Below are positions 3,950-42,141 of a DNA stretch of 64,000 bases, one piece after another. The notes under the pieces were generated by a model, which was not told the DNA's origin, ran no database searches, and saw only the letters and a list, made by a program, of their open reading frames with translations. The position numbers were made by a program, and so were the translations under genes. Origin of the DNA: Lingula anatina. Its lineage: Eukaryota > Animalia > Brachiopoda. Within the stretch, counting starts at the first letter, position 1; every line of letters begins with the position of its first letter. The stretch covers positions 29,636,001 through 29,700,000 of the forward strand of contig CM120642.1 of the NCBI GenBank assembly GCA_051362555.1. The letters are read 5' to 3'.

Positions 3950-4757
3950 CTAAAACGTATCATGATAATTATAGCCTATAGCATTCTGACTATCCTTGGA
4001 AGGTGTCATGCCTAGCTGCATCAGAGGTGCTGTTCCTGTAATAAAGACTACGAAGTATGAACGCAAAGAAGAGATTTCTGATACAGGCTCGAAAGTAAAA
4101 TTCCTATATTTAAAAGCATTTCTGTATTTATTTAATATGATAAGAGCAATGAGTAACTCACATTATTAAACTATGTATTTAAATCAAAATGCTTCGAATT
4201 TTGCTGAAATAAACAGCGTTTGGATTTGTAGCTTAAGACAAAAGGGGGTGAAAGACATACCTACTACAAAAAAGTTGAATTCGGCATACATGTCACCCTT
4301 GCGGAGAACACATTTCCCAATCTTTTGATCACATTCAGATGCATCCCTGGCATTAGGATGGACATGGCCACTTTGGCATCTGGTTTTATTGTTACTGTCA
4401 CACGCTAAAGCCAGATTTTCGTTGGCGTGCGTGTGATCGTTAAGACATGAGGAAGGTGTACTACCTGAAGAAAAAACGGTACGTGAAGGCGCCTCCTGGT
4501 AATGTGTTCATTAGTGCAGCTTAATCTGTCAAATGGTAAGTTAATTTAACAACAGATGCATATATTGAGTTTTGATCAGTTAATCAGATTTGGTTAAATC
4601 TGTTGAATGGAAGTGCTGATAATTTGCGAACAAAGAAAATTAATATCATAAGAGAATTTTTTTCGCTTTCATGAAAAATATTAGTAAATGGGCCATGTAT
4701 TATCAAATGTCAAAAAAAAAAAATGCGTACAAGTACAAAAATTGTATATTTACCCAT
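3950..4757 (-). CDS. Small Cys/His-repeat protein, paralog A (97 aa, putatively N-myristoylated), family unassigned
   Basis: Exons 4757-4754 (ATG G|gtaaat), 4464-4261 (204 nt), 4035-3950. Protein: MGSTPSSCLNDHTHANENLALACDSNNKTRCQSGHVHPNARDASECDQKIGKCVLRKGDMYAEFNFFVVGTAPLMQLGMTPSKDSQNAIGYNYDTF*. Canonical splice sites, a TATA/CCAAT-like region upstream, and the same gene structure as three paralogs in this window. Confidence 0.82.
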
Positions 4758-4835
4758 CTTTCGCATTCAAACTTTTCTGCAAACTTGTGTCGTTCTCCAA
4801 TGCTTTCACGCCCTGTGTCTAAACCTGTTCCACAT

Positions 4836-4868
4836 GGACTATATATATATTCAGCTTAGGCCAATCAC
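4836..4868 (-). promoter_or_regulatory. Candidate core promoter (CCAAT box plus TATA-like box) of paralog A
   Basis: Minus strand reads gattggcctaagctgaatatatatatag about 80-110 nt upstream of the ATG. The same arrangement is found upstream of paralog B. Confidence 0.55.
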
Positions 4869-5540
4869 ATTAAGTTCCCGAGATTAAGTCATACTTATTT
4901 TTGTCACCGTGTTGCTTACGTATGTATGACTTCATACTTATTTTTGTCGCTGCTTTTTTGTTGCTGACTTATTTGTGTAACGCTGAGTGCTGTATCTGTC
5001 CGATGAGTGTTCCTTATCTGTGGAGGTATAGGCTATATGAATAAAGAGATCTGAATCTGTTAACATGTAACACCAAACTCTTGAAATGTGTTTTTTTCTT
5101 TAAAATTGGCAGTCATGTAACGAAACAAATGTAGAAATCTGGATGAGGTCATCTCGTCGATTTATTGACCCAAGGCCTGTATAACTAAGCTATGCCTGTT
5201 AAGATACTTCATAGTATATTACCACTTCATGGGATAAGCATTACTACTTCGTGATAGAAGGTATACCATTTTTGTATGAAGTTATTTTCAATTCCGTTCA
5301 CATTTATCACTGGATTAATCACACTGTATTAAACTATAGAACAATTATAGGCTTTGGTTTCAGTCAATTTGTTGTTTTGCTAGACTCTAGAACAGTGAAC
5401 GCTGCACAACATGAGAAAATAATGTTATTAATTTCGGATGGCATTTTAGCAGATGGATATGGCAAATGATACTTTTTACAATGAACGAAAATGCATTTGT
5501 TAGACATTTTAAAAAGATTATTAGGCGTAAGCTTGTATTA

Positions 5541-5748
5541 GACCCCATTCCCAGAGAGTAGATCGATCCAACTAGATCGACCTTACTCCCTGGGGGTTCA
5601 CGCTAAATAGCTGTCAGCCGAGCGGGCGCGAAAGTTAATTACCCCCTTACAGCTTGTTGTAGGCGGGACGGACATTTAAGCCGTATTATCTGACAGTAAT
5701 CTAGTGAGACTCCCCACAGATCGATCTAAAATCTATGGGAATGAGCCC
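5541..5748. mobile_element. PIF/Harbinger (Tourist-like) MITE, copy 1
   Basis: About 210-bp element with imperfect TIRs (gaccccattcccagaga..tagatcgatc / gatcgatctaaaatctatgggaatgagccc) and a TTA target-site duplication. Four near-identical copies occur in this window. Confidence 0.85.
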
Positions 5749-7575
5749 TTAGAACAATATCAAAAAGATGGATTTTGTAAGTTTACTGTTTGTCTCCTTA
5801 TTTTAGTGTGCGGTGGTGTTAGCCAGTTTTTGCACTAGTCAAGACACTTACTAGTGTACACTTACTGAGTACTGTATGTTTGTATAAGCAAGGTTTTCTT
5901 ATCATGTTTAAGATTGTTATTATATTTTTTATAAGTTTCAGAGTTTATTTTACATTTTATTCATTTATTATTCTTCTTATCATAATTCATTTTTTCGTTG
6001 AGTTATTTATTAAGTATCCATTTCTGTTCTTTATTTCTTTAAGCCACCTTCACAGCATTTCAACTCTGCGTTATCTTCTGTAACAAGTGGACTGTGCAGT
6101 GATTGTATATGTGAGCAAATAGCCGCATTTTGAAAACTCTGCTGCACTTTACAGCATTTGAACAGTTTATCAAATTCTAATTGTAAACATCAACTCTAAG
6201 CGTGTTGCTCCTGCACAGTGTATTGAATCTTGGTGGGTGATAAGTTTTAAGCAGTTTTAGAGCACAATCAATCTTTTTCGGTTTATTCACCGTCCCATGG
6301 AACAAAGGGGTCAAAGCGCTAGTCGTCATATTTCGCTGCTTTGTAAAGCGGTGTGCTATAGTGAACGACTTTCAACGTAACGCCCTAACTAAGTAACATA
6401 TTATCATGAAAATTCGCATGGTCAACGACTAGGTAGGCCTATGAACTTAAATCAGGTAAAGTGTTTGATTTATTATTATTTATTTAATATGTGCGAGCTC
6501 TCAATTACGCTGTTTTATTTAAGCCCCCCTAAACACTGACCGTCTGCATCTTTTAACTGCATCCTTTAACTGTTTATTTTGCAAAATTTTGTATATAAAA
6601 ATAGTGAAACACGTAACACTTGAGTAAATTAAATCGACCGATTAAATGTTTACCTTTTTCATTTCAACAGGCTGAAGGTACATGTACAAGGTAAAAAAGT
6701 ACACCCACTTCTCGTTCTCTGAGACTGCAGGGGCAGTTTTTATTGCAATCAGTCCATATAAAGCTCACCAGCTATTCATCAAAGCTTTATTGCGCAACAT
6801 CCAAAAGAATAATGATCATGATTTGCTGCACGGAACCTTTCATTCAACATTCTAAAATCAAAGTTAAATAAAAAGATAAAAGGGTTATTTTGGGTTTCGA
6901 ACCAACACGCACAAAAATGAAAAACAAATATCATCCTTTATCCTCTGTTATAATAGTACGTGAGTCTAGTTGACTGTGCTTCTTTGTCAAACAATCTTAC
7001 ATGTTGACTTGGGACATTATTAGAAGTGTATATATTGATGCACCTTGAAAGATCTACATTATAGTTGTTAAATACAATCCGAGCTTTAGGCCCCTGGGCC
7101 TTCTTCGGGGATTTTGAACAAAAAGTAAAAAAACAAACTCCTAGGATACGTGACGTCGGTGATGTGTTGAAGACATGCGATGGCCCAAAAGCGTTCTATA
7201 CGTAAACAATACGTAAACAACGTAAACAACAATTCTTGGAAAGAGTTATTGCATGAGACATCATTGAATATGTTTTTTTTTGCCAAAAACAAACATGACA
7301 CAAGTCAATATGGGGAACTGTCTAATAAAAGTGGTAAGGTACATGTACCATCATTATATGTGGCTAAAGGGTGACAGTTATTGGTCCATTAGGCGTGTAG
7401 TGGGAAACCTAAGAGAATATGAAATAAAAATTTATTTATTTTTAACTGACACTACAGTGTATATCAATTTTTACACATTTATCTAAAGGCAATATGATTT
7501 TGTACCGTATTTTACAATTAAGAGTAGCTATTTAATTCTGAAATCGAATAACGCTAATTTATTGTCCAAATTCAG

Positions 7576-8463
7576 AGCGGAAGATCACATTCCACACAAG
7601 TTGTTCCGAGATTTGGTTCAACTGGAATTTAGACTTGAGCGACAGTAAGATGACCGCCCTACCAAAAAGGATATTTGCCAAATCAGAATTACTGTCACCT
7701 TTAGAACTGAGTAGAAATGAACTTCATTCACTTCCACCAGAAATCTTAAAAAAAAAAAAACTCCTGCTAACGAAGTATAATACCTGTGTGCCCGCGTCTA
7801 TAGCCGCCCTCGGTGCTGATACATTGTCATGTGTAAAGTGACCAATTCAGAGGGCAATATTGTGAAGGAGATTAGAATAAACACTCACTGTGGTCACAGA
7901 GAGCTTACAATTGTGAAAACAGAAATTCATGCTTTTCGCTCTATAAAAGAATCTCTTTGGGCGCTTGGAGTCGATCGTTTTAGTCTTCCTGGTTTTAATA
8001 ATCGCAGCGCATGCTAATCACCTGAATTGCGTTAAGTGATCCACCACCAGATGTGATTGTGCAATTGTCGTCAGGGCGCAATGCATCTTCTCCAAGGCAT
8101 TCGACAAAATTCTTTAAATATAATACCAGTGTTTCGGCGTCTATAGCCGCCGGCGGTACTGATATATTAGTCATATGTCAAGCGACCAATTCAGAGGGCA
8201 AAGACGAGAAGGAGGTTAGAGTAAATACTCACTGTGGTCACAAAGAGCTTACAATTGTGAAAAAAGAAATTCAGGCTATTCGCTCTATGAAAGAATCTCT
8301 TTGGACCCTTGGACTTCTTTTAGTCTTCCTGGTTTTAATAATCGCAGCGCATGCTATTTCGTCTGAAGTGCGTGGTCATTTTGAACGAGAAATGAACCAC
8401 CGCAATTTTGATACATCCATGATTCAATACAAGAGACGTTTCGAGGCAGCTCCTCATAATTGA
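7576..8463 (+). pseudogene. Decayed LRR-Ig-transmembrane receptor-like gene fragment with an internal tandem duplication
   Basis: After a ttcag acceptor: IPHKLFRDLVQLE/(frameshift)LDLSDSKMTALPKRIFAKSELLSPLELSRNELHSLPPEI, which fits typical extracellular LRR units. Then two copies (about 7770-8015 and 8115-8355) of C(Q)ATNSEG...EVRV, like an Ig F-G strand, followed by hydrophobic LWTLGLLLVFLVLIIAAHA. Frameshifts and large deletions are present. Confidence 0.62.
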
Positions 8464-9599
8464 GTCCCAACTGGCAGTAACCACGCTTAATCTTCGATAG
8501 AAGCTAGAAAGTAGAATTGATTTTATTATGAAAAACATTGTGTTTAAATTAAAATCGAAATTACCATTTTTATTTTCAATTCATGAAATGTATATCCTGG
8601 ACTCTAACACGCCTGAATACACACCTTAAAACTATTCACTGATTGCATAAGAAAAAGAAGTTCAATTTTATGCGTTTTTTAATATTCATTTTACTTTCTG
8701 GAAGTGTGATTGAGCACGGAAACCTCCAGATCACACCTGATATATGATGAATAAAAACCGAACGGATTTTTGATTTTATGTTATTTTATCAATAGAAAAT
8801 CCATCAATAAAGACCTCTTTGCAACCCCACAAATTAAAACGTCTGCACTATGTTGTTTGGGAATTATATATAAAATAGTCTTTTCGGGCGTAAAAATTAC
8901 GTATTTTGGCACTGCCACAGTTATTCAATTTTAGCTTCTAAAATAACTTCATTTCATTTTATTAAAAGGATTCACAATAAAAGCGGCCGGCATCGGCCAA
9001 ATTTCGAACATCATACTTGTGTTTGTCACTTTAATGCTTTTTTTCCGATACCGTATTGAACTTTTTTCGATCAAGGAGACATAAAGATAATGTAAGTGCA
9101 CTTAGTCTCCCAGTAGGAAAATATGTTGCCAATCCTACTTCGTACATTCCCGGGCGTCATTCCAAAGGACCTGAGAGATCTTATCTATTAATGAAAGGTA
9201 ATCGTGCGCAGGCGTTAATTCTTGGAAGGAGTTATTAGCATGAGTCATAACCGAATATGGTCTTTTGCCAAAATCAAAGCTACGACTCAGTGACACAAGT
9301 CAATATGGAGAGCTGTTTGTCTAATAAAAGTGATAAGATACACGTACCATTATTATATGTGGCTTAAGGGTGACAGTTTTAGGTCCATGAAATAATGTTT
9401 TATCTTTTTTTAAATTGACACTTTATCAATCTTTAGATATTTATCTGAAGGCAATATCATTTTGTGCAGTTAAATTGACGTTATTCAACGTCTGTGCAGC
9501 CAAACCTCAAACTTGACTATCTTTATGATCGTTTTGCAATTAAAAGTTGCGCAAATTATTTCTGAAATCGAATAACGTTATTTTCTTGTTCAAACACAC

Positions 9600-9690
9600 A
9601 GTGGAAGATTACATTCCACACAACTTTTTTCCGCGATTTGGTACAGCTGTACTATTTAGACTTGAGCGACAGCAACAAAATCGCGCCACT
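9600..9690 (+). pseudogene. Second truncated copy of the LRR fragment
   Basis: IPHNFF/RDLVQLYYLDLSDSNKIAP is paralogous to 7585-7660. It is preceded by a copy of 7295-7575 (9290-9600) and followed directly by a copy of the 3' flank 8530-8810. Confidence 0.55.
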
Positions 9691-11445
9691 TTTTTTACGA
9701 AAAAACATTATGCTTAAATTGAAAGTGAAGTTATCAATTTTATCTTTAATTCATGGAATATATATCCTGGACTATAATCTGTCTTAATGTACATCTTACA
9801 ACTATTCAGTCGTGCATTAATGGCACAAGAAAAAGAAGTTCCATTTAGTGCATTGTTTTATTTTCATTTTTTTTACTGCCTGGAATTGTGATTAAGTAAG
9901 AGCAGGTAAGACCTGATATATGAGGAATAAAAACCGAACAGTTCTTTATTTTTTATATTGGCATTTAAAAACAAAGAATATTTTATCAATAGAAAATCCA
10001 TCAATAAAGATAGCAAAAGTGCACTTAGTCTCCCAGCAGGAAAATATGGCGCCAATCATACTTCGTATAATTTCGAGCACCATTCCAATGATCCCGAAAG
10101 ATCTTATCTATAAATGCTAGGTAATTGTGCACGGAAAACTGTAAAAGCTTAAGTTACAGTATAGTTAAATGATACATAAAATGAAAGCAGACCTATTCAC
10201 CGGTTATCAAAAACACTGTGAAACTGTATAATTCCTTGAGAACATTTCTTTTGATCATGTTATTGTTAATGTATAATGAAACCATTTTTGTCTTGTTTTG
10301 CTGGGCTCAGGAAAGCTTACAACGACCGCTCAATTACAATTGCACTTTCATCGTTGTGGCCAAGAGAAAATAATGTTATACAATTTCGGTTGGCAATTTT
10401 TAGTAAATGGATATGCCAAATGATATTATTCCCAATTAAGGATAAATGTATATTGTTTTGCAATGACGATTTGATACGAATTTATATGGACCGGATGCAA
10501 TAAAAGCGCCGCAGCACTCTCACAAAAAGAGAAGTGGGTGTACAAGTTTGTTTTTCTTTTTAACTTGTATCTTCAACCTAATGAAAAAAGGTAAACATTT
10601 AATCGGTCTATCTAATTTACTCAAGTGTTATGTGTTTCACTTTTTTATTTACAGAAGTTTGCAAAGAAGACAGTTTAGAAATGCAGAAGGCTGTTCCGTA
10701 AACAGTGGTAGAAATCGCTGTAGTGTTATTTTTCAAATATATTCCCCGACGGGTGACCATGGCGCCAATGGTTCACAAGCAAGGTAAAAAACAACACATA
10801 ACTTTAATCGCAGTCAGTCTGTAAAACCCGTAACCTCTAATAAGAACCCTTAATTGCAAAACGGTCATAAAGTTAATCGATTTTGAGATTCTGCGACAGT
10901 TCTAAATATTGACTTAGGCAACTTACGTGTAGTTTCAATATTGACAAATAATCATGTTCAGTGATTACTTATGTAATTGCTTTCCAAGAATTAACGCCTG
11001 CGCAGAAGTTGTACCAACACGTGGTCTATACCGTAGATTGGCACTTATAGAATATAGCGCAAACCACACCACATTTCACAGCATTCTAAGAAGTTTATTA
11101 TTAACTATAATTTAAAAGAACCTCTATTATATAATTAACTGATAAAAGAAGATTGCAAACTGCATAATACCTTGAAGATTTATTCTTTTGATCATGTTCG
11201 TTGCAGTAGGTACATGCACGGGAGAAGCTTATAGCCACATCATTACTGGGTCTTCAGTATTTTGCCCTGGATTCTGTTAATATGATTGTGACAGTGTCCA
11301 AGAACTTTATTTAATGCTTGTGAAAGCAAGAAGTGAAAGGGTGCCAATTTGCAAATTATACATGTATAATTACAATCTCCTGCCCAACATTAGTTCTATT
11401 GTACAACAATATTTTAACAGTAAACTAATTAATAGGGTGTATCTA

Positions 11446-11485
<40 letters not shown>

Positions 11486-11848
11486 GTACCTCATTTTATC
11501 TTTTTTCTTATTTTTCTTGTTGGTCTGCCTTGTATACTTTTATCTTAATCATAATCTATTAATCATTATATCCATGCTTTTATTTCTGAAATTAACTCAA
11601 ATAATTAATATTCCTATTTCAATGGCTTTTAAAATATATCAATACATCTTATCGTTTACCATTTTTAAAGATGGTTCAGTATCAAACGTTAAGTTTTGCG
11701 TTATGCAAATCAATATTTTCGTGGATGAATTTTGCCAGTCTCTTTGTTTCAAAGTATAGGTATCTAGTCTAATATAAACCATAGGTCTTATTCCAGCCGT
11801 TTTATAATGTTTCCAAATCCATGCACGTTGATGTTTCGATTTTAGTTG

Positions 11849-12749
11849 TTAGTAGTCTACCGCATTCCCAGAAGACCCGGTTAACATTCGTCCGAATCCT
11901 GTCGTGGTATTAGGAGACCTTTCTGTAATATTAAGAACAGAATATGGGTAAAAGAAAGCACTTTTTGATACAGGGTTGAGAGAAAGATATTTATTCAAGT
12001 GAGATTGGTCGGTAACTTTTGTGCTCTATCTAAAGTTAAAGAATGTAAGGGATAACTCACTTAACTAAATTTAACATTGAATCATAAATATCCTTTGGAT
12101 TTTTATCTTAAGACATATGCACAATATAAGTAAAAACAAATAAATACAACATACATAAATTTACAATAAACTCAATGAAAAGAAGGATCGAAAGACATAC
12201 CGAATGAATATACGTTACCATCGATTCTTTGAGCTCCATTTTGGAGTGTTGCTTTTCCAATTCTATCATCGCATTCGGTAACTTCCTTGCCATTGGCATG
12301 CTTATGACCAGAACTGCATGTGGTTGAATTTCTACCGTCACACGCTGCAGCTTCACTTTCACTATTGTGTTTGTGTCCATTGGAACATGTGGAATAAGAA
12401 CCACCTGCAAAGACGTAACGGTAAAAGAAGCCGCATTCTGCTAATGAGTTAATTCAAATTCAAAGTGCAGGTAAATCGATCAGATCATACCTCAATCTAA
12501 TTAAGATAAATCCATTAGGTTATGATTTCTTAATTTGATTCAGTTAAATCAATTTAATGGAAGTGCTAATAATTTGAAAACAAAGGGCGTATATGAACAA
12601 AAAAATACACTTACTTTCCAAAATAAGTAGATAAATAAATAAACACATAAATAATAATTATAATAATAATAATAATAATGATGATGATGATGATGATGAT
12701 GATGAATATACCGTCATATCAAATGGTAAAAAATCGTATATGTACCCAT
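11849..12749 (-). CDS. Small Cys/His-repeat protein, paralog B (93 aa, putatively N-myristoylated), family unassigned
   Basis: Exons 12749-12746 (ATG G|gtacat), 12404-12201 (204 nt; donor GTATGTCTTT identical to paralog A), 11922-11849. Protein: MGGSYSTCSNGHKHNSESEAAACDGRNSTTCSSGHKHANGKEVTECDDRIGKATLQNGAQRIDGNVYSFERSPNTTTGFGRMLTGSSGNAVDY*. Confidence 0.84.
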
Positions 12750-12831
12750 TTTTCTTTTCGGCTTCTACTGCACAGCTGTGTTGCTCTCCAAAGGTTCCAC
12801 CTCTGTGTTCGACTTTGTTCCCATTGTGCCT

Positions 12832-12857
12832 GTTATATATTCAAAACCAACCAATCA
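12832..12857 (-). promoter_or_regulatory. Candidate core promoter (CCAAT box plus TATA box) of paralog B
   Basis: Minus strand reads gattggttggttttgaatatataac. Spacing and the downstream 5'UTR are homologous to paralog A. Confidence 0.55.
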
Positions 12858-12947
12858 TTATCGAGAAACATCACATGATACCTAGTGCTTAGGGGCCGTA
12901 GCAAAAGTCTAACTGATTTTAATATCTACAGACTTGAACATTACCTG

Positions 12948-13114
12948 CAGACCCGTAGCCAGCAATTTCAAAAGGGGGTTTCTCTTTCTGAAAAAGTGGA
13001 CCTTTTCCCATATATACTTCATGTACCTAGATCAAATTTTACCCATAGTGGACCTTTTCCCAGCAAAAGGGGCGGTTCTTTCGAACCCCCGAACCCCCCC
13101 TGGCAACGGGCCTG
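12948..13114. mobile_element. hAT-like MITE with a 5-bp TSD
   Basis: Termini CAGACCCGTAGCCAG / CTGGCAACGGGCCTG (CAG...CTG), flanked on both sides by ACCTG. Confidence 0.75.
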
Positions 13115-14252
13115 ACCTGGTTGCTTTAAGCATAATACCAAGGCATATAAACTTCTTTCCAAATTTAATGGAAACAAAACAAAATGTTTTACTTCTTATA
13201 CAGGTTATAGTTTTACTTTACGTAAAGGTTAAACAACACGTGCGTGTATTTTACACGAGTGTTCATATCACAATTAAGAGCTTTTCGTTTGTTATTTCCA
13301 AACGCGAAACAAAGGTGTTTAATAAACAGGTAAGTCAAGTCAATCCGGGTGTTCATTTACTTGCAAAACATGCATTTTTTAACTTAAATCATTGACGGAA
13401 AGGCAGCTTTCAGTTTGTGGCAAAATATTGAAAAATTCTATTTAGCGGGCACTACAAAACATGTATTGTTGTGTTGATTGTAGTTACATAAAAAGTAGTC
13501 AAACAACAAATGCGTGGTGACAGACAAAAAAGATAGGACTGATGATGGATTTTATTGTCTATTCATTTCATAGGTAGCGGACACTACAAAATAAATGTTA
13601 CATGCATAATACATTGTTAGAATCAAATACGACTATTTCACATGCAGTAAAAGAAAATTCATGGTTATGAATAAGAAAACATAATTCTATAAACATAAAT
13701 ATTAAGACGAATTTTTTATTTCAGTGATTTTCTTAAATTCATGCATGAAAAATGGAAATTCAAAACACCGAGAAGCTCCCATTTAAGCTTCCATAATGAG
13801 GTCAATTTTAAAAATATCTTTACACCATTAGTTGTAAAACAAAAATAAAAAGCATGTTATGTAAACACATCTCCATATACATTTTTCACAAAAATTATTC
13901 TTTAATAAAACAAAGAAAATCAATGTGCAAATGCATATCACAAATTTATAGATGTTCACATAAATACTGTATATTCATTTTGATTAATAAAGAAAATTAT
14001 TCGTTTTACTTTATATACTGAAAGTCTCCATGACGGTTCAACAAGATTTCATCCAATCTGCATGGTTTGGTTTCATAAAACAAAGGCAGCACACAAAATG
14101 GCACCCTGATCTTGACTGACATGATGTATACCTATTTATTACAAGTACAAAATACAGAATATGCCCACGACAGCTGATTGTCTTTCCCTAACCCAAATCT
14201 TGCAAGGTAAATATAAAAAATTGTTGAACGCCATATTTTTATATACCATTCT

Positions 14253-14260
<8 letters not shown>

Positions 14261-14328: not shown

Positions 14329-14331
<3 letters not shown>

Positions 14332-19429: not shown

Positions 19430-20435
19430 CTACGTACAATTCGACAAGAGGTTACTAGTTTTCATGGTCCCCTCAGCACTGGACAATATGGGTCCTATTT
19501 GTTAAATATAAAAGCATGAAGCAGTGTTTCAATATACGACCAATTACGATCATTCGACTGTGCAAATATGCATAGTCAATACATGTACAAACAAGCATAA
19601 ATGTGATGGTCAGTCAATCAGATTTTACTCTTTCCAAAGAAAAAATACATGGGTCTTACCAGACTGTAACACGTTTAGAACTTTTGGCCCCTGGAATTCG
19701 GACACAAAGGTTGCTCTACCAAGAATGCTTTCACATGACATAGCCTCTTCTTTATTCGAATGCACGTGCCCCATTGTACATGTCGTCTTATTGTCTAAAT
19801 CACACTGTATGGCTTCAGGCTCACTTTTATGCTGATGCCCGTTCATGCAAGGATATTTTCGACCTAAAACTATAAAGATTTTCATTACAAAGTGCATTGG
19901 AAAAGTTATACTTCTTGTTATCTTTCTGATTACCATTGCATATGCAACAAAAATATTTCATAGGAGGAAGCATGTTAATGATAACATGGATCCAAAAAAC
20001 ACCCTGATAATCTTTACCATTTATGAAAAATAATTAAAAATTATCATGATACTTCTCTTTATAGTTGAGTACCCCAAAGAACAATGGGGAAAAGGGAAAA
20101 AACGAAAAAAATTAAAACACTCCAAGTAAAAGTAATTTGTGAACATATTTATGAAAGAAGGCCATACAATAAATAATGTTAATGTAAAACCCCTGAAGGT
20201 TTTCATAATAAAGTAGACAAAAATACATGGCCCTTAAACAATGTCCTGATTTAACCGTAATAGAGGTTGGAATGTCAAAGGCCACAGCCACTGCATGTGC
20301 TGGAAAATTATATATTTCATAGTATTTGTGAAATATCATAATTTTCTAATTATTATTATTATTATTATTATTATGCTCGAAATGGTCGTGTTTTGCACGT
20401 CATTGCTATATACCATACCAAATCTGTCGACTCAT
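19430..20435 (-). CDS. Small Cys/His-repeat protein, paralog C (about 96 aa; first coding exon tentative)
   Basis: Core exon 19863-19660 (204 nt, phase 1-1): GRKYPCMNGHQHKSEPEAIQCDLDNKTTCTMGHVHSNKEEAMSCESILGRATFVSEFQGPKVLNVLQS. Last exon 19494-19430: GPILSSAEGTMKTSNLLSNCT*. The only phase-compatible start exon I found is 20435-20414 (MSRQIWY G|gtatat), which is less certain. Confidence 0.72.
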
Positions 20436-27730: not shown

Positions 27731-28187
27731 ACTTTTGCAAAAATGATCCGATCAAGCTGTATTTTCATAACAGTGATCGCTCTTGCGATTTTTAAGATAT
27801 TAGGCTTGTCAGTTTTCCTTGAAATGTGTTAGCAGTGTTGCAGATATGCTGAAAAAAAAGGAAAAAAAGTAGAATAACTTTTGAAAGCTGGTCCGATCAT
27901 GCTGATTTTCTAACTCAACCTGAGTTTTATGAATATTCATCAGTTCCATTAGTTTGAAGACAAATATAAGTTTTCCACTTACTGTTATATCACTGAAAGT
28001 GCACAGCGATGGCAGACGACAGACGCAGGTGATAGCTTTATGAACAGACACATATGTGTCTGTATATAAAAAAGTACAAATATTTGTTTGAGGGACAGCG
28101 ACCAGGAGTTTTAGTACTTTTCACTGTCTAGACATTGTGGCACCGATCACTGTTTCTCCCAGGAATTACCGAGTTGAGTTATAGTTA

Positions 28188-28722
28188 CGAGGGTTGATTG
28201 ATAAGTAGTGAGCCTCATATAGAAGGGGTACACATTTTACGAGTATTTTTATTTATTTTTTAACATAGTCTCCTTGAGTATATATACACTTTTGCCAGCG
28301 AGTTTTGAGAGCCTCTATGCCACTTTTATAGCAGCCCTTCTCTTGGCCGTTCAGAAACCCCTCCACTTCACGTATGACGTCATCATCTGACACAAAGTGA
28401 GTACCTGAAATGGCCTTTTTCAATTTGGGAAATAGATAATAGTCAGAGGGAGCAAGATCAGGCGAATAAGGTGGATGTTCTATCAGTTCAAAGCCACACT
28501 CGTTGATTGCAGCCATGGCAATGACAGACTTGTGAACAGGGCATTTTGCAAAAGTCACTTGCCTTGCTTATTTGAGAGTGCTACCTCGTCGACATAAACT
28601 AACCAAATGACACCAAACTTCGGCTACACACCTTTAAATAGTCAGGGAATAGAAGGGCTAAAAAGGGATATCCCTGCTTAACCCCTTCCACACGAGGCTC
28701 ACTACTTATCAATCAACCCTCG
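28188..28722 (-). mobile_element. Internally deleted mariner element with a C-terminal transposase remnant
   Basis: Perfect 28-bp TIRs CGAGGGTTGATTGATAAGTAGTGAGCCT with a TA TSD. ORF 28253-28558 contains HPPYSPDLAPSDYYLFPKLK and RWQKC...GDYV, hallmark mariner DD34D C-terminal motifs. Confidence 0.93.
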
Positions 28723-29603
28723 TATATCCATTCAGTTTAAAAATTCATGATAATGTGAAAAAAATAATTCGAACTGTTACCATGGCAACAGCTATCATAA
28801 TGACGAATTCCAGAGCAACAGATACATTTTTGTTTTTAGATGGGGCATTTTTAGAATCATTTTCATCCAAAAGTAGCATTTGGGCAGTGATTACGGTTTA
28901 AAAAAAGTATAGCAACGGTTACCATGGAAATAATGGATAAATTCCAGAAAATATATCTTGTCAGATTCTTCTCGTGTAACTTTCCAGAAAATTTCAAATG
29001 GATATTTTACTCCATTCAAACGTTATGCCAATTTTGTTTAATTGATTGGGCAATTAGATGACACTTTTGGCTTCCACTATTACATACTCTTCCATAGAAG
29101 ATTTCAAAATTTTGTGGCCGATTAGCATTCTTGTAAATTTAATAACTGTAAATTTAATAAGTCTGTAGTTACGTACACTGTAAAAACGGTGTTTACCTCC
29201 TAAACGCATTTCTAAGCGCCTGTTTTGTCTCATTTTTTCGACGCGTTTAGCTCCTAAGCACGTTAATCCCCTTAACATGTTACACGCTTTGACGCCTTAT
29301 AAATGTAGGATATATTTATTTAACTTTTAGGTGCTAAGGGTTTCAAATGTTTTAGTCACACACGCACGCACGCACACACACAAGAACTCACGGTCACCTT
29401 TAACTGCTATAGCTATTTCTATCCATAACAGGGTACCGTGAACTGTCAACATCGTTGACTTAACACCATAACCTTTACAGCTGGACTTATTCATTCTTGT
29501 GTTATAGCTGAACTTGCAAGGAAGTTTATTGGGATGTATTTCTGAAAAACAAAGTACGAAAATTTACTAGTTCTCTAAAGACACAAAATAAGCTATCACT
29601 TTT

Positions 29604-32412: not shown

Positions 32413-33956
32413 TAAGGTTTCATCACATGCTGGTTATTTCGGTACCGATAGCCCGAATATTCTACAATTCGCACCGCTCTAGTCGCCGACTAACCCCGAG
32501 CCCATTTTGGAATTGACCGCTAACTGTAGCTCATACAGCATAAGACGTGTTTTGTTTTTTTATGAAAAAAAGTTTTCAAAACATTATATAATGTTTTTCC
32601 AGAATGTTATAAAAACGCTGATAAAACTCCACAAATTAACTTTAAAATAAAATTTTGTAGAAACGGTCTTCGATTCTTTCTACAAATTACTGTAATGTTT
32701 TTTTATTATCTGGGACACCATTTTGCATGAGTTAAAAACACCCATAACGTTACCTTAAAGCAATAATAACTCTTCCTTTGAGATTCAAAATTCCGCATGA
32801 AATACATTGTAAACAACACATGGAAATATATTCTATTGTATTTTACCACTAAAACGGCCGTTATTGTAGTAAAACTAAAATCTGTGCTTGTCAATGGGGC
32901 TTTCGATGCTTTTCTTCCCAGTCATCAAGGCATTCGTTGCTAATGACGTAATGGTGTCACGCGGATTCGCGCGTTCATTCGAGACCAAAATAACATGGCG
33001 CCAAACGCATTAATGCGGACGCAGACGTAAGTTGCGAGTTTTTGTACAGTGCGTCGGATAACGAAAAGCCCAGAATGGCACACATTGTGGATATAAATGC
33101 ATTTTTAACAAAAAGACGAATATATCTCATGAATCTTATATAGTGTTGTTGTTGTCTGCTTTTCCCGCGGTTTTAAGTAGGTCACCAGTGACTTTGCAAT
33201 GTCAGAGAGAGCTCCGTCAGTTAAAATCTCTTAAGAGATTTTAACAAAAAACCGTACATTTAGGAAAAAAACCCTGGATTAACTTTGAATGCAGGAATGG
33301 GGTCGTTGACCATTGGTAAGTACGGGAAAATTGCCGTTTTTTCCAGGCAAATCCAATTTTTGGCCAAAACGAAGAGTTATTATGACTTTAATTTAAGGAG
33401 GCCCTCTCATATTAGCTTTTTTTTGCGATCTGCGGAGATTTCGCGCATGAGTAGTTTTTTACGATAGCGGCTAATTATAAAAATATAACATGCAATAAAA
33501 TACGTAATTTATCCTTTTAAGAAATCTGTATGAAATATTTAATGTTATTTTGGTCGAAGCGCTACGAATATGTCAACAATGCGTTGCGTATCAGTGAACG
33601 CTTGGTCTTTTACGACGTAAAGTACCCACTTGCGCCTTTGTTTACAAATGCCGCAATGTACGAAATTACGCGAAGAAGGGATTGAAAAGAGCGTTTTAGT
33701 AAGGCTTGTATAGCAGTGACATAATCTTATCTCACAAAAAAACATTCACAAGGGCTTGCATTTTGACCACAAAGTGTATTGCTAAGATTTGTCATATGGT
33801 TACGATGTGTGTAGCAAGACATTGTCTTCTTCAGCATTGGTTTCCGATCACCCAGGTTGCGGTGATTTGTATGCTGAAAACAGTTCTCTTTTCTCTCACA
33901 ATTAGTTAAAATAATTAGACTCATGGCGTTTTTATTATTATTATTATTTATTATTA

Positions 33957-33988
<32 letters not shown>

Positions 33989-35159
33989 GTATGTTATATG
34001 ACCTGTAAACAGTGCAATTTTAAGCTCTCCTGGAAAGATGCAATAGGTGTGCACCCATCCGGTGTGTTGCGATGTCATTCTTGTAATGGTTTAGAACCAT
34101 AAAACACACAACAGAGGACCAAGAGTTTTTTTATGCAAATACATGTAATACTTTTTTATGCTGGGAAAATAAACAGTATACAGTATATAAGAAGATAAAT
34201 TATATTTTATTCCAACTTTATCCAAATTTACCCAATCATTAACAATTTAGTTTGTACATTACTTAACAGAAATTATTCAGCCCATAATGTATTAGAATAT
34301 TGTCTTGAGTCAAAAAATTTAGTTGATGTATGCAATAATAAAGAGCAGAAAATCCTTTGATCTCATAATCCTGGGCCGCGCGAAAAGAGTAGTAGAACCA
34401 AGCCTTTTTTTTTTTCAGTGTTTTTAATCTTTTTTTTTTATCGACATCACAAAACAAAACATACATTTTTCACACTAAACACATATGACAACATATATGC
34501 AACAGACACAAACTAGCATACAGTAGTCTCATTGGACATTAACAGCACAAGGGAGTGACAGAATACGTTGCACAAAATAACAGAAGTAATAGTATATAAT
34601 ACACATAACACAAACTGATAAACATATATCGTAACATATAAACAAACAAACCAGCTTATTATCATATATAAGTCACACCGGATTCTACACATTACAAACA
34701 TATCAGGGTACCATTTATAATATACCACAGTCACAATATATGTTATTATGCAGATTGTCGGGAATAACAGAGAGCATCACTCACTTACAGGATCATACAG
34801 AACAAATAAGCGTACAATAGTCTCCATAAACAATCTGGTACAGCACGCAAGAATGACAATTGGGACTATCGAGCTATATCTCAGATACATATAAAGGCTT
34901 AGCTGTGAACTCAGGTACACATAAAAAGTTGCTACACATTACATACAAACATATAACAAGTATCCATGAGCAATCTGGTGCAACACAAAAGCCTGACAGT
35001 ACGGACTATCGAGATGTGAACTTAGGCACGCAAAGATATTAGACATGCACAATTGGCTATGACTCCAAACAGTAAGAGATTGTCATACATTTACACTCGA
35101 CACGCATTGTATCGTTCTAAGTAAGGCTAAATATTAAATTGTGTAAGCATTCGTACATG

Positions 35160-35825
35160 GCCTTAAGGTGCCCCAAATTCTGTACTGAGTCCAGATATTT
35201 TTTAGCAAATTCAACAAAAGAAATAGGTTTGTTTCTGCACCTAAAGCTGTAGATATAGTATTTGATTAACATATTTAAGACATTATACGCATCTTTATTT
35301 TTTCTTTTTTGTCAAGAATTCCAAATATAAATGTTTTTTTCTCTAAAGTCATATTCAGCTTGTCTTTGATTACATTTCAAAAGGTTTCAGTTACGGAACA
35401 GTCCCATAGTACATGAATAATTGTCTCCGTCTCTTTCTCGCACCTTTTACAAAGGGGGGTGTTAGCCAAACCAGTTTTTGCAAGATAACTATTTGTCGGT
35501 AATATATGTTGATTTATTTAATACTGGAACCATTTAAATTTAGGACTGATAGGAAGGTTGAAAGGCAGTTTATTTATTAGAGACCACTCTTTATCATTAA
35601 TATTGAACAATTTATTCCAATTCATTTTGCCCTTTGAAATAGAAGCATTCTTACTAAGTATTTTATAAAAATCTTGGCAGCCCTTCTTACTTTTAAAGAA
35701 GATACTTAAATACTCTGGGAGTTTAGGGAGCATTACTTCAGATTCGTTTATATCATGCCATCTCAAGTATCGCTTAATGATGCTTACCACCCCTTGATAT
35801 TCTAGGAAGTTGTTTTTAATCTTAA
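35160..35825 (-). mobile_element. 5'-truncated L1/Tx1-clade LINE remnant (ORF2 C-terminus with zf-RVT)
   Basis: Reads NFLEYQGVVSII...KFKWFQY*INQHILPTNSYLAKTGLANTPLCKRCEKETETIIHVLWDC. The C-x2-C-x8-H-x4-C knuckle preceded by FQY-I-HxILPTN is typical of L1/Tx1 ORF2. An in-frame stop is present. Confidence 0.85.
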
Positions 35826-38800
35826 TATGATCAAAATTAAAATAAAAAATGATACTGAAACATAATGAATTATCACAAAAAAAAAATTCACGGCAGATTT
35901 TGACCCAGGAAGATCCCTGTTATTTGATTTTTTATTTCATCCCATTCAATTAACTAAATCCTGTGTTCAACCTTTAGCAAATTCTATATAATACCTAGTT
36001 TATAAAAATAATTCCTTCATGTTTAGGGGGAAAATCAAGATGTCGTGGTTAATATATCAGCATTTGCACATGTCATTTCAAAGAGGTCTAGATGGTCTTT
36101 ATTGTCTTCTATGTGAAATTAATCTAAACACAAAAAAGAGTAACAAAATGTATAAAGTAATAAGAAAAATGCATGTAGGATGTCTATAATTCCTAGATTT
36201 TAAATAAGTATGTATATCTATTATTGATATTTATTTGATTTCATGTTGTAAATATAATATGAAATCAAAATAAACTGATAACCAAACGATGTCTTTAGAT
36301 GAAAGTTCTAACTTTTTTGCCACCTAGTTTCCAAAGCACGTTTGCCAAGAAATATGGCTACATGTAACGTACATGTACCAGTAGTAAGAAATTGATACAT
36401 TGTTTAAACAATGTATATTAAAATATACAAAGCAAACAATCTATCCAGCTATCTCAATGTTAAAAATGTATAAACCAGTAAGAAAAAAGGAATAGGAAGA
36501 TAAAAGTCACAAGAGATTGATACATGTGCTTGTAGGTCCAGCCTATGAAAAATCCAATATAGCGGCATTCCATGAGGCATACTGAAATCCAACTGATACT
36601 TTCAACATTTGAATATCTATTTATTATGAATGGGATACGCAAACTTTATGAAATTTGGTTAGCTGATGCAGAGAAGTATAAATATAATTTTCATGGAAGC
36701 AAAATAAGTTTATGAGTTCAAAAACCCACGATACAAACATATTCATTTAAATTTGCTTGGAAATTTCCATTAATTCCTATGTAAAATTGATAAAAAATCA
36801 ATGTTCAAGCAGCCGTGGCTCAAAAACAAGCTCGGTGTAGTACATATTTTTTTTTGTAAATTTCTTTGAGGTCTACCAAGATCAATAACATATCCACATA
36901 AAATTAAAATCGCTAGGGCAGAATTTTTTATTTTTGCATTTTTCAGCAAAATTAAGGGCATTTTGGCAAAATCCCCCTATAACGCAATGTAATAAACGTA
37001 GCGTTTTTCGGGACGCCACCTCTCGAAAACGAACTGGAGTACCCCCAATTTTTTTTTCATATTTTTTACTCATATGGTAAGAAGATTTTGCCTTACAATT
37101 TTAATAAAAATCGCTAGGGCAGAAATATGAGAGAAATCTGAAATATGAGAGAGCGTCCTTAGATAAAGTGAATAAATCACTCGATCAGCCACAAAAGAGC
37201 TTTAGACTGCTCTTTAAATTTTTGGTCAGAAATCTAACCTACTAATGTGACCTACTTTTTTGCCCCATGTAGGCCTATATACAGGATAGTAAGCTAGCAG
37301 AAAAATCCATTCAAATATCATTTTTCGGGTACGTAATATTAAACAATGCCTTCTGGCAATTTTCTTAATCATACTGTTTGAAACTATATGCTGAAGTTTA
37401 GTTGATTTTGTATGCATCTTTAATAGGCCTATTTTAAATAAGCATAAATAAATAGGGAAGGACACCAGGCGTTTCTGTCGAGCAGGCTGCTCCACGCCTT
37501 CAACAGCTCCACAAGTTTACAAGGGGAAGTGTCAAGCCAAATTGTTGAGCCTTGTAATAAACTTATAGGACCGGTGAAACTAATCACAATGCTAAAAGTG
37601 CGACACTTCTAAGCATGCTAAACATTTTTATTTCTTCTGAAAGAAGTTTGAAAAGCAAAACGTGTTGTTCAGCTACCTTCTACCAGGGCCACAGATTTAT
37701 TTTTCACAGATACTAGTATTCACAGATATAATTCTAGATAAATAGACAGTCATTTCGGTCTCACGTCGCCTCAGCAAAAAATGTCCACAATAACTGCGGC
37801 ACTGGTAGAGGGTATTGTTCAGCAGCTCCACACGTTTACGAATTCCAAATTAATAGAGTGAATGATAAAAAAGTCCATCCAGTCGGCAAATTTGGTGTCT
37901 GAGCTTTCTGGGGAATAACATTTTTATCAGAATAATGAAAATGAAGCGTAGTAGAGGGTTGTTCATATAATGTTGCGCAGCACCAATTAGGCACAGAGCG
38001 TACCTACGTCGTGGAAAGTATTAAAATATCAATCAACATAAAATCCCAAATAAGGGCAGCGAAGCGTTTTTTTTTTTTTTTTTTTTCATTATTTTTTATT
38101 TTCCAAACCATTACACAGAGGTGCTACGCAAAAATGATCCAGTGAAAGTCACTTGCGTTTGCGGGCAAGTAACGCCAGTAGGCACAGGCACTGTGGTATG
38201 ACGAGCCCTGAATTACATATAACGTGGACGTTTGCTGCCAAATTTACGACAAAATACCCAGACGAGTTAATTTTGTAATCAGTTTTTTCATAAGTAATAT
38301 ACACCATTGCTGGATGCCTGGAGCTTCTCAAAAAGTTACTGGACCGACGGGCCGATAGGACAAAAAACAGCTCATTCAAAAATTATATTTTACTGTATCA
38401 GCTGAAATCAAAGACCCTTGTATGTATGTCGTTAAAGTACCACGTGACCCAGATCTTTCGCTTCATTTTTGCATATTGAAGTCGGGTTTTTTAAAACGGT
38501 TTTTCTATTAATAGACTGTTGTTTATTGGGTGGTGATCGATTCAAACCTATCTCGAGAGTACAGACTGAGTGCTGGATCAACCAAATTCGATAAATGGAG
38601 TTAAACGTGTGGCAAACCCTTTAAGGTTACTCTCAAGGTTTATAATCATCAAATAACTTAATAATGCGTATGGAAGCATTGACTTCTTCAAATGACTGTT
38701 AGACGAGAAGTTCACACGTGTCAGATCTAGAGAATACCTAGTCTGCCATGAAAAGAAGTGTGTGGCTCTTAATCTTGCGTATCATAAATCCCACCTACCT

Positions 38801-39292
38801 CATCATTTCTTTAAAAGGTCATTGGAAAAGCCGTGATTCATTTACGAAAACAAGCTCACCTGTCATTTTTTTACTTATCTAGAGACACCAAAGGAAGAGA
38901 AAGAGAATATTTTGTCAGAATTAAAAGAAGCGGTTAATGTAAGATTGTAATTAGTTAATAGTATAAGCTCACCAAAATTGAATAGCTGAGGGCACCATCC
39001 TCCGGCATTTTCTTTCTTCTTATTTTCACGTCTTTGATTATGGTCACCCCGATTTTTCGGCTGAGCTTCTGTTGGGTCTGTAAAATTATATACTGCAAAG
39101 CTAACCAAATTCATTGTTAGTTGAATAAACACGTTTGATCATACACATTTCCATGGACTTGCTGACGGCCAATAATTACTATGTTACTATGATAATACAA
39201 AAACTGATACTCAAATTAAACAATACTATACCTACGGGACGAAATCGATATATGTTTCAGTGAATTCCATATTCTACGTAAACACCATAAAA

Positions 39293-40560
39293 TAAGGGGC
39301 CCTGAAGTAAGTGTCTAGTTTCTAGTTTCCAGTTTCGTTTTTCAGAAATGATTCTGGCAACCAGAAACTAGTGTCGTTTTTCAAAAGCGAACCTGGCAAC
39401 CAGAAACTAGTGTCGTTTTTTAAAAATGATTCTGAGAAGCCAGAATTGTTTGTGCGCAGAGAAACAGTGTTGGACGGAGGGAGAGGCAACTTGCAATTAT
39501 ATTAGCGTCTACCGTGACCAGGTTACCCTTACCGCAAAGGGTGTTACGGTCTCTCCTAGCCGTGTGCTGAGATCGAGACGGTCGCCAATTAGTGCCTACG
39601 GCGCTCAGGTAACCCTCACCACGGAAGCCGGACAGAGTGTTCAGGGAGTAACGGTCTTTCCTCGCCGCACGGTGAGGCCGATTGACTGCAGTCACAGCTA
39701 GTCGACCGCCTTCACAGCGGAAGCCGGGAAGGGTGTTAAGGTGGGGTTGGGGGTGGGCGGATGACGGTGAGGAGGGGGAAGTTTCTAGTTTGAGGTATAA
39801 TTTCTAATTTGATTGAAGTTTTCAAAAATGAACCTGGCAACCAGAAACTAGTGTCGTTCTCCAAAAACGAACTCGGCAACTAGAAACTGCATGTAGTTTA
39901 GTTTTTTGTAAAACGACTCTGGCAACCAGTAGCCAGTATCGTTTTTCGAAAAAAAAAACATTAGTTTCTAGTTGCCAGAATCCTTTTTTTTTTTAAACGA
40001 CACTGGAGTTTTGACATCAGAATCGTTTTTGAAGAATGCAATTAGATTAAAATTAATTCTTCAAACTACGAAAGGAGACCCTGGCCCTCCCTCCCCGCAA
40101 GCAATTAAACGATTCTAGCAAATAAACGAAATTATCTTTTTTCGAAAATGACACAAATTTTTAATTGCCAGAATTTTATTATTATTATTATGAAAAAAAT
40201 CAAACTTAATCAACCCTACAGACGAGACAGCAAATGCCGATCTGTGCGCCGTATATACCGAGACGGAGGAGAGAGACCGTAGTGTTCAGCATAGCTTCTG
40301 CAGGGAAGGCAACCTGTAAACGGCGGACGTTTCGGTCTCAGCGCACAGACTGCCCGGCTTCTGTGGTGGAGGTTTCCTGGTCGCAGTAGACGCTTATCGC
40401 CACTCGCCTCCCCCTCCGTCCACTTCTGTTTCCCCCCGCAAAACGATTCTGGCTACTCAGAATCGTTTTTGAAAAACGACACTAGTTTCTGGTTGCCAGG
40501 TTCGTTTTTGAAACACAAAACTGGAAACTAGAAACTAGACACTAACTTCAGTGCCCCATA
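39293..40560. mobile_element. About 1.27-kb foldback/MITE-like element with long inverted arms
   Basis: Left end TAAGGGGCCCTGAAGTAAGTGTCTAGTTTCTAGTTTCCAGTTT matches the reverse complement of the right end AAACTGGAAACTAGAAACTAGACACTAACTTCAGTGCCCCATA. Repeated subterminal motif CTGGCAACCAGAAACTAGTGTCG; GC-rich inner arms are also inverted (39430-39520 vs 40375-40470). No clear TSD. Confidence 0.75.
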
Positions 40561-41395
40561 AAGTAGAACGGACAAGGTCCATTCTTGGGATGCGCGATTC
40601 TCAGTTTCTGATTGCACAACAGTCGCTAGATAGTTATATCAGGCATGGAAAATGTCTGGAACTCTTTTCATGCACTTTGACTAATGAGATCACAGGTCGC
40701 CTGAAACAACCTCGGCTTTCATTATATTGCTACTTGCAAAATCATTCCAAAAATCGTAAGGAAATTGTAAAAATTAATTAATGCGAATAGCAGAGTCAGC
40801 GACCACAGAAAAATCATTGAAAACCAAAGACTGATATGAATTTTTACCTTCTACTTGTGGATTTGGCGAAAAAGATCAACACGTAAAATGCTGAACTCGA
40901 ATTTTTACATCACCAGATTATATTGTATTGCAACTGTTTTGAGTTAATGTTACAACATACAGCTGTATTAGCAGGAGTGTTATATGCATTTTGCTTCAGT
41001 TTATGTTTTAGAATCATAATTCTAAGAAGTCGTCGTTTTTCAAATTCAAATTTTATTTTCATCGTAACTGATACATCAATATCCATACACTGCTAGTCAT
41101 TACTATCATCAGAAACAACAAACATTTTAGATTCGCTTTTACAAATGCTTTTCCACAGAGTTTGGTCGGAACCAGTGACACACTTACGTGGTTTTAACAA
41201 TACCTCTGAATCATTGAAACTATGAATCAAGACACTCTTGAGAATAGAATTGAATAGAGTATCTGTTTTGAATTGGCTCGTGTTTTCCAAATCTCGCATC
41301 ATATTTCCTTCAAATCAATATTCAAATTATTTTAACTATGCTTGTTTTCAGCTACAACATTAATATTACGTCCCTTTTCCTATTTGGTTCGTTAT

Positions 41396-42087
41396 CTAAA
41401 ACTGTAAAGCTCTGGAGGGGTCCCAGTTCTTGAATGCTTGCTGAACGTTGGGTGTTTTACCTGAATACAATTATATTAAAATTGTTCACACAGCTAAATG
41501 AAGTGAAACAGAAAGAACTCTTTGAATTATTCGGTACGTTATGAAGACATTGTAAGCAGTGTTGACCATATCATTATTTTTGTTGACCTTTTTATTATCT
41601 TTGTTTTTGTTATCATTTTCCAAATTAGTTGCCGAAATATCCTGATAACCATATTTAAAGTACTTGAAAATATTTGAAATGTTAATTAATTTACTGGAGC
41701 AGCATTATATTCAAGGAAAAGTATCGTTATTAATCTATTTTCTAGTAAACAAATCACCAAGAAAACAGTACCAACCAACGGCAATCTCATTATAATCGAC
41801 TTTTGCGTTTTTGCCCAGTGACACACAACGTCTTCCTTGACGTTCATCACACAAAGAAGCTTCATCGCCATTTATATGCTTGTGACCCGAGTTACAATTA
41901 GTCGCCCTTCGGTTGTTGCACCTAACTGCATCAGCCTCATTAGGATGGGTATGTCCATTGTCGCAGACAGATTCACTTTGTCCTACATGTATAATAAATT
42001 TGATCATGACAGACGCCGTTTGTCACGTAGAGGCTGCTTCACTATTCCCTTAACGGTTGAAATACCCCTTTCTATATTGTTTACAAT

Positions 42088-42128
<41 letters not shown>

Positions 42129-42141
42129 TGTACTCACCCAT
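41396..42141 (-). CDS. Small Cys/His-repeat protein, paralog D (91 aa, putatively N-myristoylated), family unassigned
   Basis: Exons 42141-42138 (ATG G|gtgagt), 41982-41776 (207 nt), 41460-41396. Protein: MGQSESVCDNGHTHPNEADAVRCNNRRATNCNSGHKHINGDEASLCDERQGRRCVSLGKNAKVDYNEIAVGKTPNVQQAFKNWDPSRALQF*. Confidence 0.83.

Follow-up and report, generated by a model that had tools for sequence, protein, structure and literature searches.

A predicted beta-beta-alpha zinc finger variant in tandem-repeat microproteins of the brachiopod Lingula anatina, with single-unit forms in phage proteins

Introduction

The present work concerns a stretch of 64,000 nucleotides (nt) of DNA from the brachiopod Lingula anatina (referred to as a whole as the window), and four small minus-strand genes within it, whose products each carry two copies of a unit with the pattern C-x3-H-x-H-x8-C. 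The predicted fold of this unit indicates that it is likely a new variant of the beta-beta-alpha zinc finger, and the genes encoding it form a real, apparently undescribed, lineage-restricted family of microproteins. Among the described systems, the classical C2H2 fingers have the ligand spacing C-x2-4-C ... H-x3-5-H and a hydrophobic mini-core of Phe and Leu residues, placed in the register F-x5-L-x2-H. Both these and the TRAF/UBZ-type fingers, which supply the weak top rows of structural searches, resemble the Lingula units in occurring in tandem and in having a hairpin and helix of similar size, which in the Lingula units are predicted. The C2H2 register corresponds to H-x5-A-x2-C in the animal units, where the Phe and Leu core positions are occupied by His (10 of 10 units) and Ala (9 of 10). 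However, the order and spacing of the ligands differ, a ligand of the animal unit sits at the core Phe position, the repeat period is 23 residues rather than about 28, and no zf-C2H2 match to the window proteins was found in Pfam at E-values up to 10. Metallothioneins have a very high Cys content arranged in CxC/CC clusters, whereas the window proteins contain 4-5 Cys in 91-97 amino acids (aa), none of them adjacent.

The ligand order C, H, H, C is also that of the CHHC finger of U11-48K, TRM13 and GTSF1/Asterix, which the accessible text of one source describes as CPX4HX9HX3C, about 40 residues long and with a basic RNA-binding face; GTSF1 is in addition a small protein with two fingers and a variable tail (PMC9539491). 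The animal unit differs from it in being neutral on average, in having C-x3-H-x-H-x8-C over 23 residues, and in lacking a Pfam match. DUF1064 (PF06356), a predicted PD-(D/E)XK nuclease according to the available part of PMC1189080, includes a Cys/His subfamily in which the ligand spacing is identical and the same hairpin-helix is predicted, and which shares with the animal units G4, a capping S/T/N9, E/D12, A13, S/T at -2 and D/N at +17; a hairpin-helix like the N-terminal one of DUF1064, with its G and S-x-x-E-A pattern, is predicted in the animal units. However, the DUF1064 unit is single, basic and fused to a nuclease core, whereas the animal proteins have neither the nuclease core nor a Pfam match. 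The same 16-residue unit, acidic or neutral as in the animal proteins, is found in phage prohead proteases (Peptidase_S78), but as a single copy in the linker behind the protease domain. No papers on the C-x3-H-x-H-x8-C ligand spacing were found (subscription papers and supplements being outside the coverage) and no published description of the Cys/His unit in phage prohead proteases; the accessible part of the Lingula genome paper (PMC4595640) makes no mention of zinc or metallothionein.

Results

When the window was scanned in six frames for C-x3-H-x-H-x8-C, exactly 8 units were found, all on the minus strand and arranged as four tandem pairs with a 7-residue gap, as had been described in a sequence-only reading of this DNA. 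In 100 dinucleotide shuffles the mean was 0.05 single units, with 0 tandem pairs, and neither a hidden Markov model (HMM) of 10 units nor tblastn revealed a further unit in the window. The ligands Cys1, His5, His7 and Cys16 span 16 residues of the 23-residue period, and the consensus C-x-[NS]-G-H-x-H-x-[NST]-x-x-[ED]-A-x-x-C reads, in the alignment, as a turn Gly followed by a helix capping box. The residue preceding the first His is G in 7 of the 8 units and D in one, which agrees with the sequence-only reading; the (D/E)xxxG motif that it had placed after the repeats is present after the second unit, but not after the first. The four genes each have three exons, and their spliced frames are open, end where they had been placed, and give products of 97, 93, 96 and 91 aa (genes 1-4). 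The core exons, of 204, 204, 204 and 207 nt respectively, have AG/GT ends and the phase 1-1 earlier assigned to them, while the tiny start exon measures 22 nt in gene 3 but only 4 nt in the other three genes. The sizes of the predicted introns (155-550 nt) match the range seen for 11 RNA-verified introns of a neighbouring gene (191-453 nt), one of which also uses the donor hexamer of gene 3 exon 1. The features of the four genes are as follows.

4754..4757, minus strand: gene 1 exon 1, predicted: ATGG (the start codon and one further base), followed by a GT donor; no read across the intron
4261..4464, minus strand: gene 1 core exon, 204 nt, with units at 4400-4447 and 4331-4378
3950..4035, minus strand: gene 1 last coding exon; 3 reads span its joint with the core exon, which is 4 nt shorter than in the model
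4843..4865, minus strand: gene 1 CCAAT-type (ATTGG) and TATA-like boxes, in the order and spacing of gene 2
12746..12749, minus strand: gene 2 exon 1, predicted, with the start codon and one further base
12201..12404, minus strand: gene 2 core exon, 204 nt, with units at 12340-12387 and 12271-12318
11849..11922, minus strand: gene 2 last coding exon, its first residues resembling those behind the core in the Lingula protein P0002 (see below); no reads
12833..12855, minus strand: gene 2 CCAAT-type and TATA boxes
20414..20435, minus strand: gene 3 exon 1, 22 nt, without the Gly-2 motif, the least certain exon; no reads
19660..19863, minus strand: gene 3 core exon, 204 nt, with units at 19802-19849 and 19733-19780
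19430..19494, minus strand: gene 3 last coding exon, predicted only
42138..42141, minus strand: gene 4 exon 1, with the start codon and one further base; the Lingula ortholog likewise has Met-Gly here
41776..41982, minus strand: gene 4 core exon, 207 nt, with units at 41918-41965 and 41849-41896; 72% identical to XP_023930403.1
41396..41460, minus strand: gene 4 last coding exon, its translation matching the C-terminus of the Lingula ortholog; trace reads in run X9
42212..42234, minus strand: two GATA-type boxes upstream of gene 4, a pattern match only

A word-indexed protein search yielded one relative, the Lingula anatina protein XP_023930403.1 (P0001; LOC112041432), which was the sole match at lengths of 37-170, none of 1253 longer candidates matching. 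Over the core exon, P0001 and gene 4 are 72% identical, and the agreement extends to the predicted last exon and the Met-Gly start, so that the exon model of gene 4 is independently confirmed. When 1.84 billion representatives were searched exhaustively with HMMER, 4 matches were obtained, of which 2 are true, viz. XP_023930403.1 and a second Lingula paralog, XP_013417499.1 (P0002; LOC106178739 isoform X2). Both proteins bear automatic names only and belong to the same family, with two units, the 7-residue gap and the same following hairpin; P0002 differs in having an 86-residue acidic N-terminal extension instead of the Met-Gly start. A Sushi-repeat protein and a repetitive protein were rejected as members, as their HMMER matches were repeat-driven and without the full ligand set. 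Searches of Pfam, PHROG, NCBIfam and PDB sequences gave nothing meaningful (best E 0.034-0.05), so that the module is still one without a named family, as first proposed; feature searches of the Atlas gave no usable match, and, within the literature coverage stated above, no paper names XP_023930403.1.

In the six proteins (those of the four genes and the two Lingula proteins) the ligand positions are kept in 48 of 48 cases and all gaps are kept, which upholds the invariance first claimed for the 8 units, while the 50-residue cores are identical at 18-37 of 50 positions. A tree of the six has long branches, with gene 4 and P0001 as the sole resolved grouping (85/92). Genes 1 and 2 are the youngest pair: their promoter and both introns are still alignable (z 8.7-16.7), and in their upstream regions, which align with z 13, the spacing of the CCAAT-type and TATA boxes is preserved. 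As local alignments of AT-rich DNA give inflated identity values, the introns were not taken as a neutral clock. Over 67 codons of this pair, the ratio of nonsynonymous to synonymous substitution rates (dN/dS) is 0.67 (95% interval 0.34-1.23), and outside the ligands it is 0.70, indicating that there constraint is weak or selection is diversifying; the ligand codons are kept in 8 of 8 cases, and the other residues match in 19 of 59. In the remaining pairs the synonymous sites are saturated or nearly so, and the ligands persist. The invariance of the ligands agrees with the purifying selection that had been proposed, whereas selection outside them is weak.

RNA sequencing reads were searched in 4 runs for genes 1-3 and 4 runs for gene 4, with 6-30% of each run read; reads less than 90% alike were dropped, and those of the neighbouring gene carry many fixed differences. 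Due to these features of the data, low depth is weak evidence of silence. For gene 1, the bin holding the core exon reached about 1.9-fold depth in run X9 only (one of four runs), and 3 X9 reads with 2 starts cover the exon 2-3 joint (window 4033-4264) in a form 4 nt shorter than the genomic model, which may reflect an allele, a paralog or an alignment effect. The core exon of gene 2 has a trace depth of 0.41 in one of four runs, that of gene 3 essentially no reads (0.05 in one of four runs), and for gene 4 X9 alone of the four runs shows traces, in exon-bearing bins. Of the splice junctions predicted by the sequence-only reading, that between exons 2 and 3 of gene 1 is thus seen, with the shortfall noted, and none of genes 2-4. 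Based on the open spliced frames, the Lingula ortholog, which shares the last exon with gene 4 and bears out the earlier claim of functional genes, and this thin RNA support, the four sequences are almost certainly real genes.

If gene 4 alone were working, then genes 1-3 would be decaying duplicates, and their few or absent reads, the dN/dS interval reaching beyond 1, the long branches of the tree, the loss of the Met-Gly start in gene 3, and a gene 1 junction which would shorten the tail are all of the kind expected in that case. However, no core exon contains a stop or a frameshift, the ligand codons of genes 1 and 2 have been kept throughout while two thirds of the other residues have changed, the ligands persist in pairs whose synonymous sites are saturated or nearly so, gene 1 is spliced, and the promoter boxes are conserved. 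Decay of genes 1-3 is, on this evidence, very unlikely.

The AlphaFold model of the animal proteins, built from five sequences, consists of a hairpin-helix twice and then a further hairpin, with the DSSP pattern EE-----EE--helix in each unit and a predicted local distance difference test score (pLDDT) of 77-78 over the units (mean 68.9). In one of the fold searches, about 11 of the 16 rows (Z 2-2.8) belong to C2H2, TRAF, UBZ or related fingers, and the others gave a similar picture. In the Atlas, residues 8-56 match a C2H2 array at a template-modelling (TM) score of 0.71, which is below the naming bar of the tool, and DUF1064 is listed independently among the structural neighbours at TM 0.52. 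As predicted from these models, each unit very probably forms a beta hairpin followed by a helix (beta-beta-alpha).

The scan of viral contigs for the single unit detected at least 121 loci (L001-L121), where roughly ten were expected. By eye and with a loose filter, 117 of the 121 listed loci belong to one nuclease-like family, and Pfam names DUF1064 in 11 of 16 checked, 4 of the other 5 having been chosen as outliers. The phage DUF1064 nucleases of this type make up a large Cys/His subfamily, in which a zinc site is predicted to stand where the hydrophobic core would be. A model of the phage nuclease (100 sequences, pLDDT 93) has EE-----EE--helix at the unit, with pLDDT 92-95 there, and matches TnsA at Z 7.7. 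A scan of viral contigs for the ordinary DUF1064 motif gave 120 loci, which reduce to 70 non-redundant segments, and in the joint alignment the two forms differ in the turn by one residue, one being longer. The Cys1 column is V/I/L in 62 of the 70 ordinary segments and the His5 column is I in 41 of 70, while His7 and Cys16 face F and Y, both of which are fixed by the search pattern. In DUF1064, four core hydrophobic residues have thus been replaced jointly by C, H, H and C, and this four-column swap is the strongest indication that all four side chains come together around a metal, from which we infer that the metal replaces the core. If the same applies to the animal units, then Cys1, His5 and His7 of the hairpin and Cys16 of the helix would probably meet and bind a tetrahedral metal, most likely Zn, a reading in which we have good confidence, and this metal site would take the place of the hydrophobic mini-core that related modules keep.

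The unit is not limited to nucleases. In a third scan, 8 of 9 loci (L251-L259 except L254) lie in long prohead-protease frames, with the unit behind the protease domain, and the Peptidase_S78 match was found in 6 of 6 checked, 4 of them above the cut-off. In these 8 loci, as well as in L074 and L095, the C-terminal linker carries a single Cys/His unit whose acidic form is similar to that of the animal units. Its occurrence both in DUF1064 nucleases and behind prohead proteases indicates that the unit is behaving as an autonomous module. With two Lingula proteins as the only relatives found, the earlier suggestion of an undescribed gene family is upheld; the unit itself, however, is not unique to the family, as it also occurs in single copy in phage DUF1064 nucleases and in the tails of prohead proteases.

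At the positions outside the pattern, the ten animal units score -179 against the phage profile, compared with -300 (standard deviation 28) for permutations, 0 of 20,000 of which did as well, although the fit is driven by S/T at -2 and D/N at +17 and the absolute scores are negative. Alignment of the animal unit with DUF1064 by hhalign gave a probability of 93% over 27 N-terminal columns, with a template half of which had been selected by the motif. Both tblastn of phages and an alignment scan of viral contigs gave nothing, and no tandem phage or prokaryote form at the same spacing, the one spacing scanned, was found in the prokaryotic, viral and metagenome collections: of the 7 metagenome, 0 genome and 2 viral matches to such a form, all 9 are shadow frames or low-complexity DNA. 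Chance or shadow frames likewise seem to account for the majority of the 23 prokaryote-genome matches to the N/K/T single-unit pattern. Six short or unassigned viral and prokaryotic frames (L019, L266, L267, L270, L274 and L280) have a good single unit, either as additional hosts of the module or by chance.

Discussion

In the mechanism proposed here, the products of about 10 kDa would consist of two 23-residue repeats folded as beta-beta-alpha fingers, each binding one zinc via Cys-His-His-Cys, and the first exon of genes 1, 2 and 4, only 4 nt long, would supply Met-Gly for N-myristoylation; held at the inner side of the membrane, the fingers and the conserved hairpin following them would then engage a partner protein, with the paralogs diverging on their surface. 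The products of genes 1, 2 and 4 start with M-G-x-x-x-S, from an exon consisting of ATG and one base, and M-G-x-x-x-S/T is given as the usual N-myristoylation consensus in the accessible text of PMC4736023. Three core exons have ATGG with a donor at a distance of 155-341 nt upstream, and the minus strand of the 64 kb contains this combination at only 5 further places. Gene 3 and P0002 start differently, each with Trp and basic residues directly before the core. Judged by the motif, the N-myristoylation of these three products is somewhat favoured. The window proteins have no signal peptide and no catalytic part, their N-termini are polar (grand average of hydropathicity -0.5 to -1.0), and the net charge per animal unit is -3 to +3 with a mean of about zero, versus +2.7 in 49 phage nuclease units. 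As a catalytic part, a signal peptide and a basic surface are all lacking, an adaptor role is favoured, and we tentatively regard the products as small cytosolic two-finger adaptors held at the membrane, a proposal that falls a little short of being probable. A precedent is Lunapark, which is otherwise unrelated but needs both its myristoylation and its zinc finger for its membrane role, according to the available part of PMC3817238.

The near-zero mean charge of the units speaks against the binding of nucleic acids. If the fingers bound RNA or DNA, as in GTSF1/Asterix or the basic N-terminal module of DUF1064 nucleases, then the overall layout, which is that of GTSF1 as far as described in PMC9539491, the DNA- and RNA-binding fingers among the fold neighbours, and the basic Lingula ortholog of gene 4 (isoelectric point 9.5) would fit. 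However, the window proteins have isoelectric points of 6.2-7.7 and a net charge of about zero, 3 of the 4 genes have the Met-Gly start, and helix positions 10, 11 and 15, at which the phage units mostly have K/R, are taken up mainly by acidic or small residues in the animal units, and we consider such binding decidedly unlikely. The scarcity of invariant residues other than ligands and fold residues could instead indicate that the holding of metal is itself the function, as in metallothionein-like small Zn/Cu buffers, sensors or chaperones, whose surface is free to drift. The value of dN/dS outside the ligands of genes 1 and 2, the tandem expansion with low resting expression, and one heptamer resembling a metal-response element (MRE) 282 nt upstream of gene 4 agree with this, whereas the few Cys residues, at two sites per protein and without clusters, the conservation of the whole chain including the tail between gene 4 and its ortholog, the lack of an MRE-like site within 300 nt of genes 1-3, and a best metallothionein score of E 7.5 do not; such a role is possible but unlikely. 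Lastly, the four Cys per core could give two bridges in a small secreted or extracellular peptide, with the His serving another purpose, and the upstream neighbour is a secreted-type complement gene. It will be difficult to reconcile disulfides of this kind with the lack of a hydrophobic signal segment, and with the phage nucleases, where Cys and His jointly replace core hydrophobics, and they are highly improbable.

Several observations weigh against membrane-tethered zinc finger adaptors encoded by four working genes. The dN/dS interval for genes 1 and 2 includes 1, RNA support is very low, without splice junctions for genes 2-4 in the runs examined, and the joint seen in X9 would end the gene 1 protein four residues into the last exon, shortening the variable tail. 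The animal AlphaFold model, from 5 sequences, has a predicted TM score of 0.45, and the structural matches are weak, the best being Z 2.8, with no Foldseek E below 0.001. M-G-x-x-x-S is missing from gene 3 and P0002, P0001 is annotated with four extra N-terminal residues, and Gly-2 and Ser-6 are confounded, since phase-1 junctions tend to give Gly, and the phage units and unit 2 likewise prefer Ser/Thr at the second position ahead of the Cys. Further, the adaptor step is reached by excluding other roles.

Other features of the window

A complement factor B/C2-like gene on the minus strand (about 43400-56526) ends about 1 kb upstream of gene 4. It comprises seven Sushi exons, a part resembling von Willebrand factor A and a trypsin-like part, and 11 introns and one alternative acceptor are RNA-verified. 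Complement factor B-like genes are known in spiralians, as reported in the accessible text of PMC9835746. The protease part of the gene in the window is likely that of a pseudo-protease, since the His, Asp and Ser motifs look replaced. The adjacency of this gene to the microprotein genes is a weak sign of an immune role, and a stress or immune context, suggested by the low resting expression and the neighbours, is a weak guess.

Between genes 1 and 2, on the plus strand (7200-10130), there are duplicated, decayed fragments with a weak leucine-rich repeat match (E 4e-4) and immunoglobulin/transmembrane-like text. Window 74-844 repeats 5413-6420, the region upstream of gene 1 (73-75% identity); from this likeness, the start of a fifth paralog would fall about 800 nt beyond the left edge of the window. 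Mobile or repeated DNA is found at 28186-28724, 35380-35919, 39293-40560 and 49200-52860, its types being a DDE transposase fragment between 44-nt inverted repeats, a zf-RVT fragment of a long interspersed nuclear element, a 1.27 kb element with inverted ends of about 110 nt, and a palindromic satellite of 22 nt. In addition, a repeat of 210 nt, with copies at 5540, 24235, 32195 and 46845, is abundant in RNA.

Evolutionary and biological significance

As only 23 residues are available for comparison, common descent of the animal and phage units is indistinguishable from convergence, and capture of the unit from phage by the animal lineage, to which convergence is the alternative, would be a rather unlikely event on the sequences compared. 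A wider scenario, in which an undescribed finger class, with a metal instead of the hydrophobic mini-core of a beta-beta-alpha module, moves as a mobile unit among phage proteins, and in which a lingulid ancestor captured and doubled it, equipped it with introns and an exon for myristoylation, and enlarged it to a rapidly diverging family of membrane-tethered microproteins, perhaps for defence beside a dead complement factor B-like gene, is speculative and clearly improbable.

If the reading of the unit is true, then with its 23 residues it would be among the smallest types of zinc finger. DUF1064 offers a natural experiment, in which one module exists in a metal-free and in a four-ligand form, and this pair makes the origin of zinc fingers from hydrophobic cores, or their reversion to such cores, testable. 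The general weight of the animal family is limited by its narrow distribution; for the brachiopods, the predicted fold gives a first structural starting point for a lineage-restricted family of microproteins which is mostly overlooked in gene annotation.

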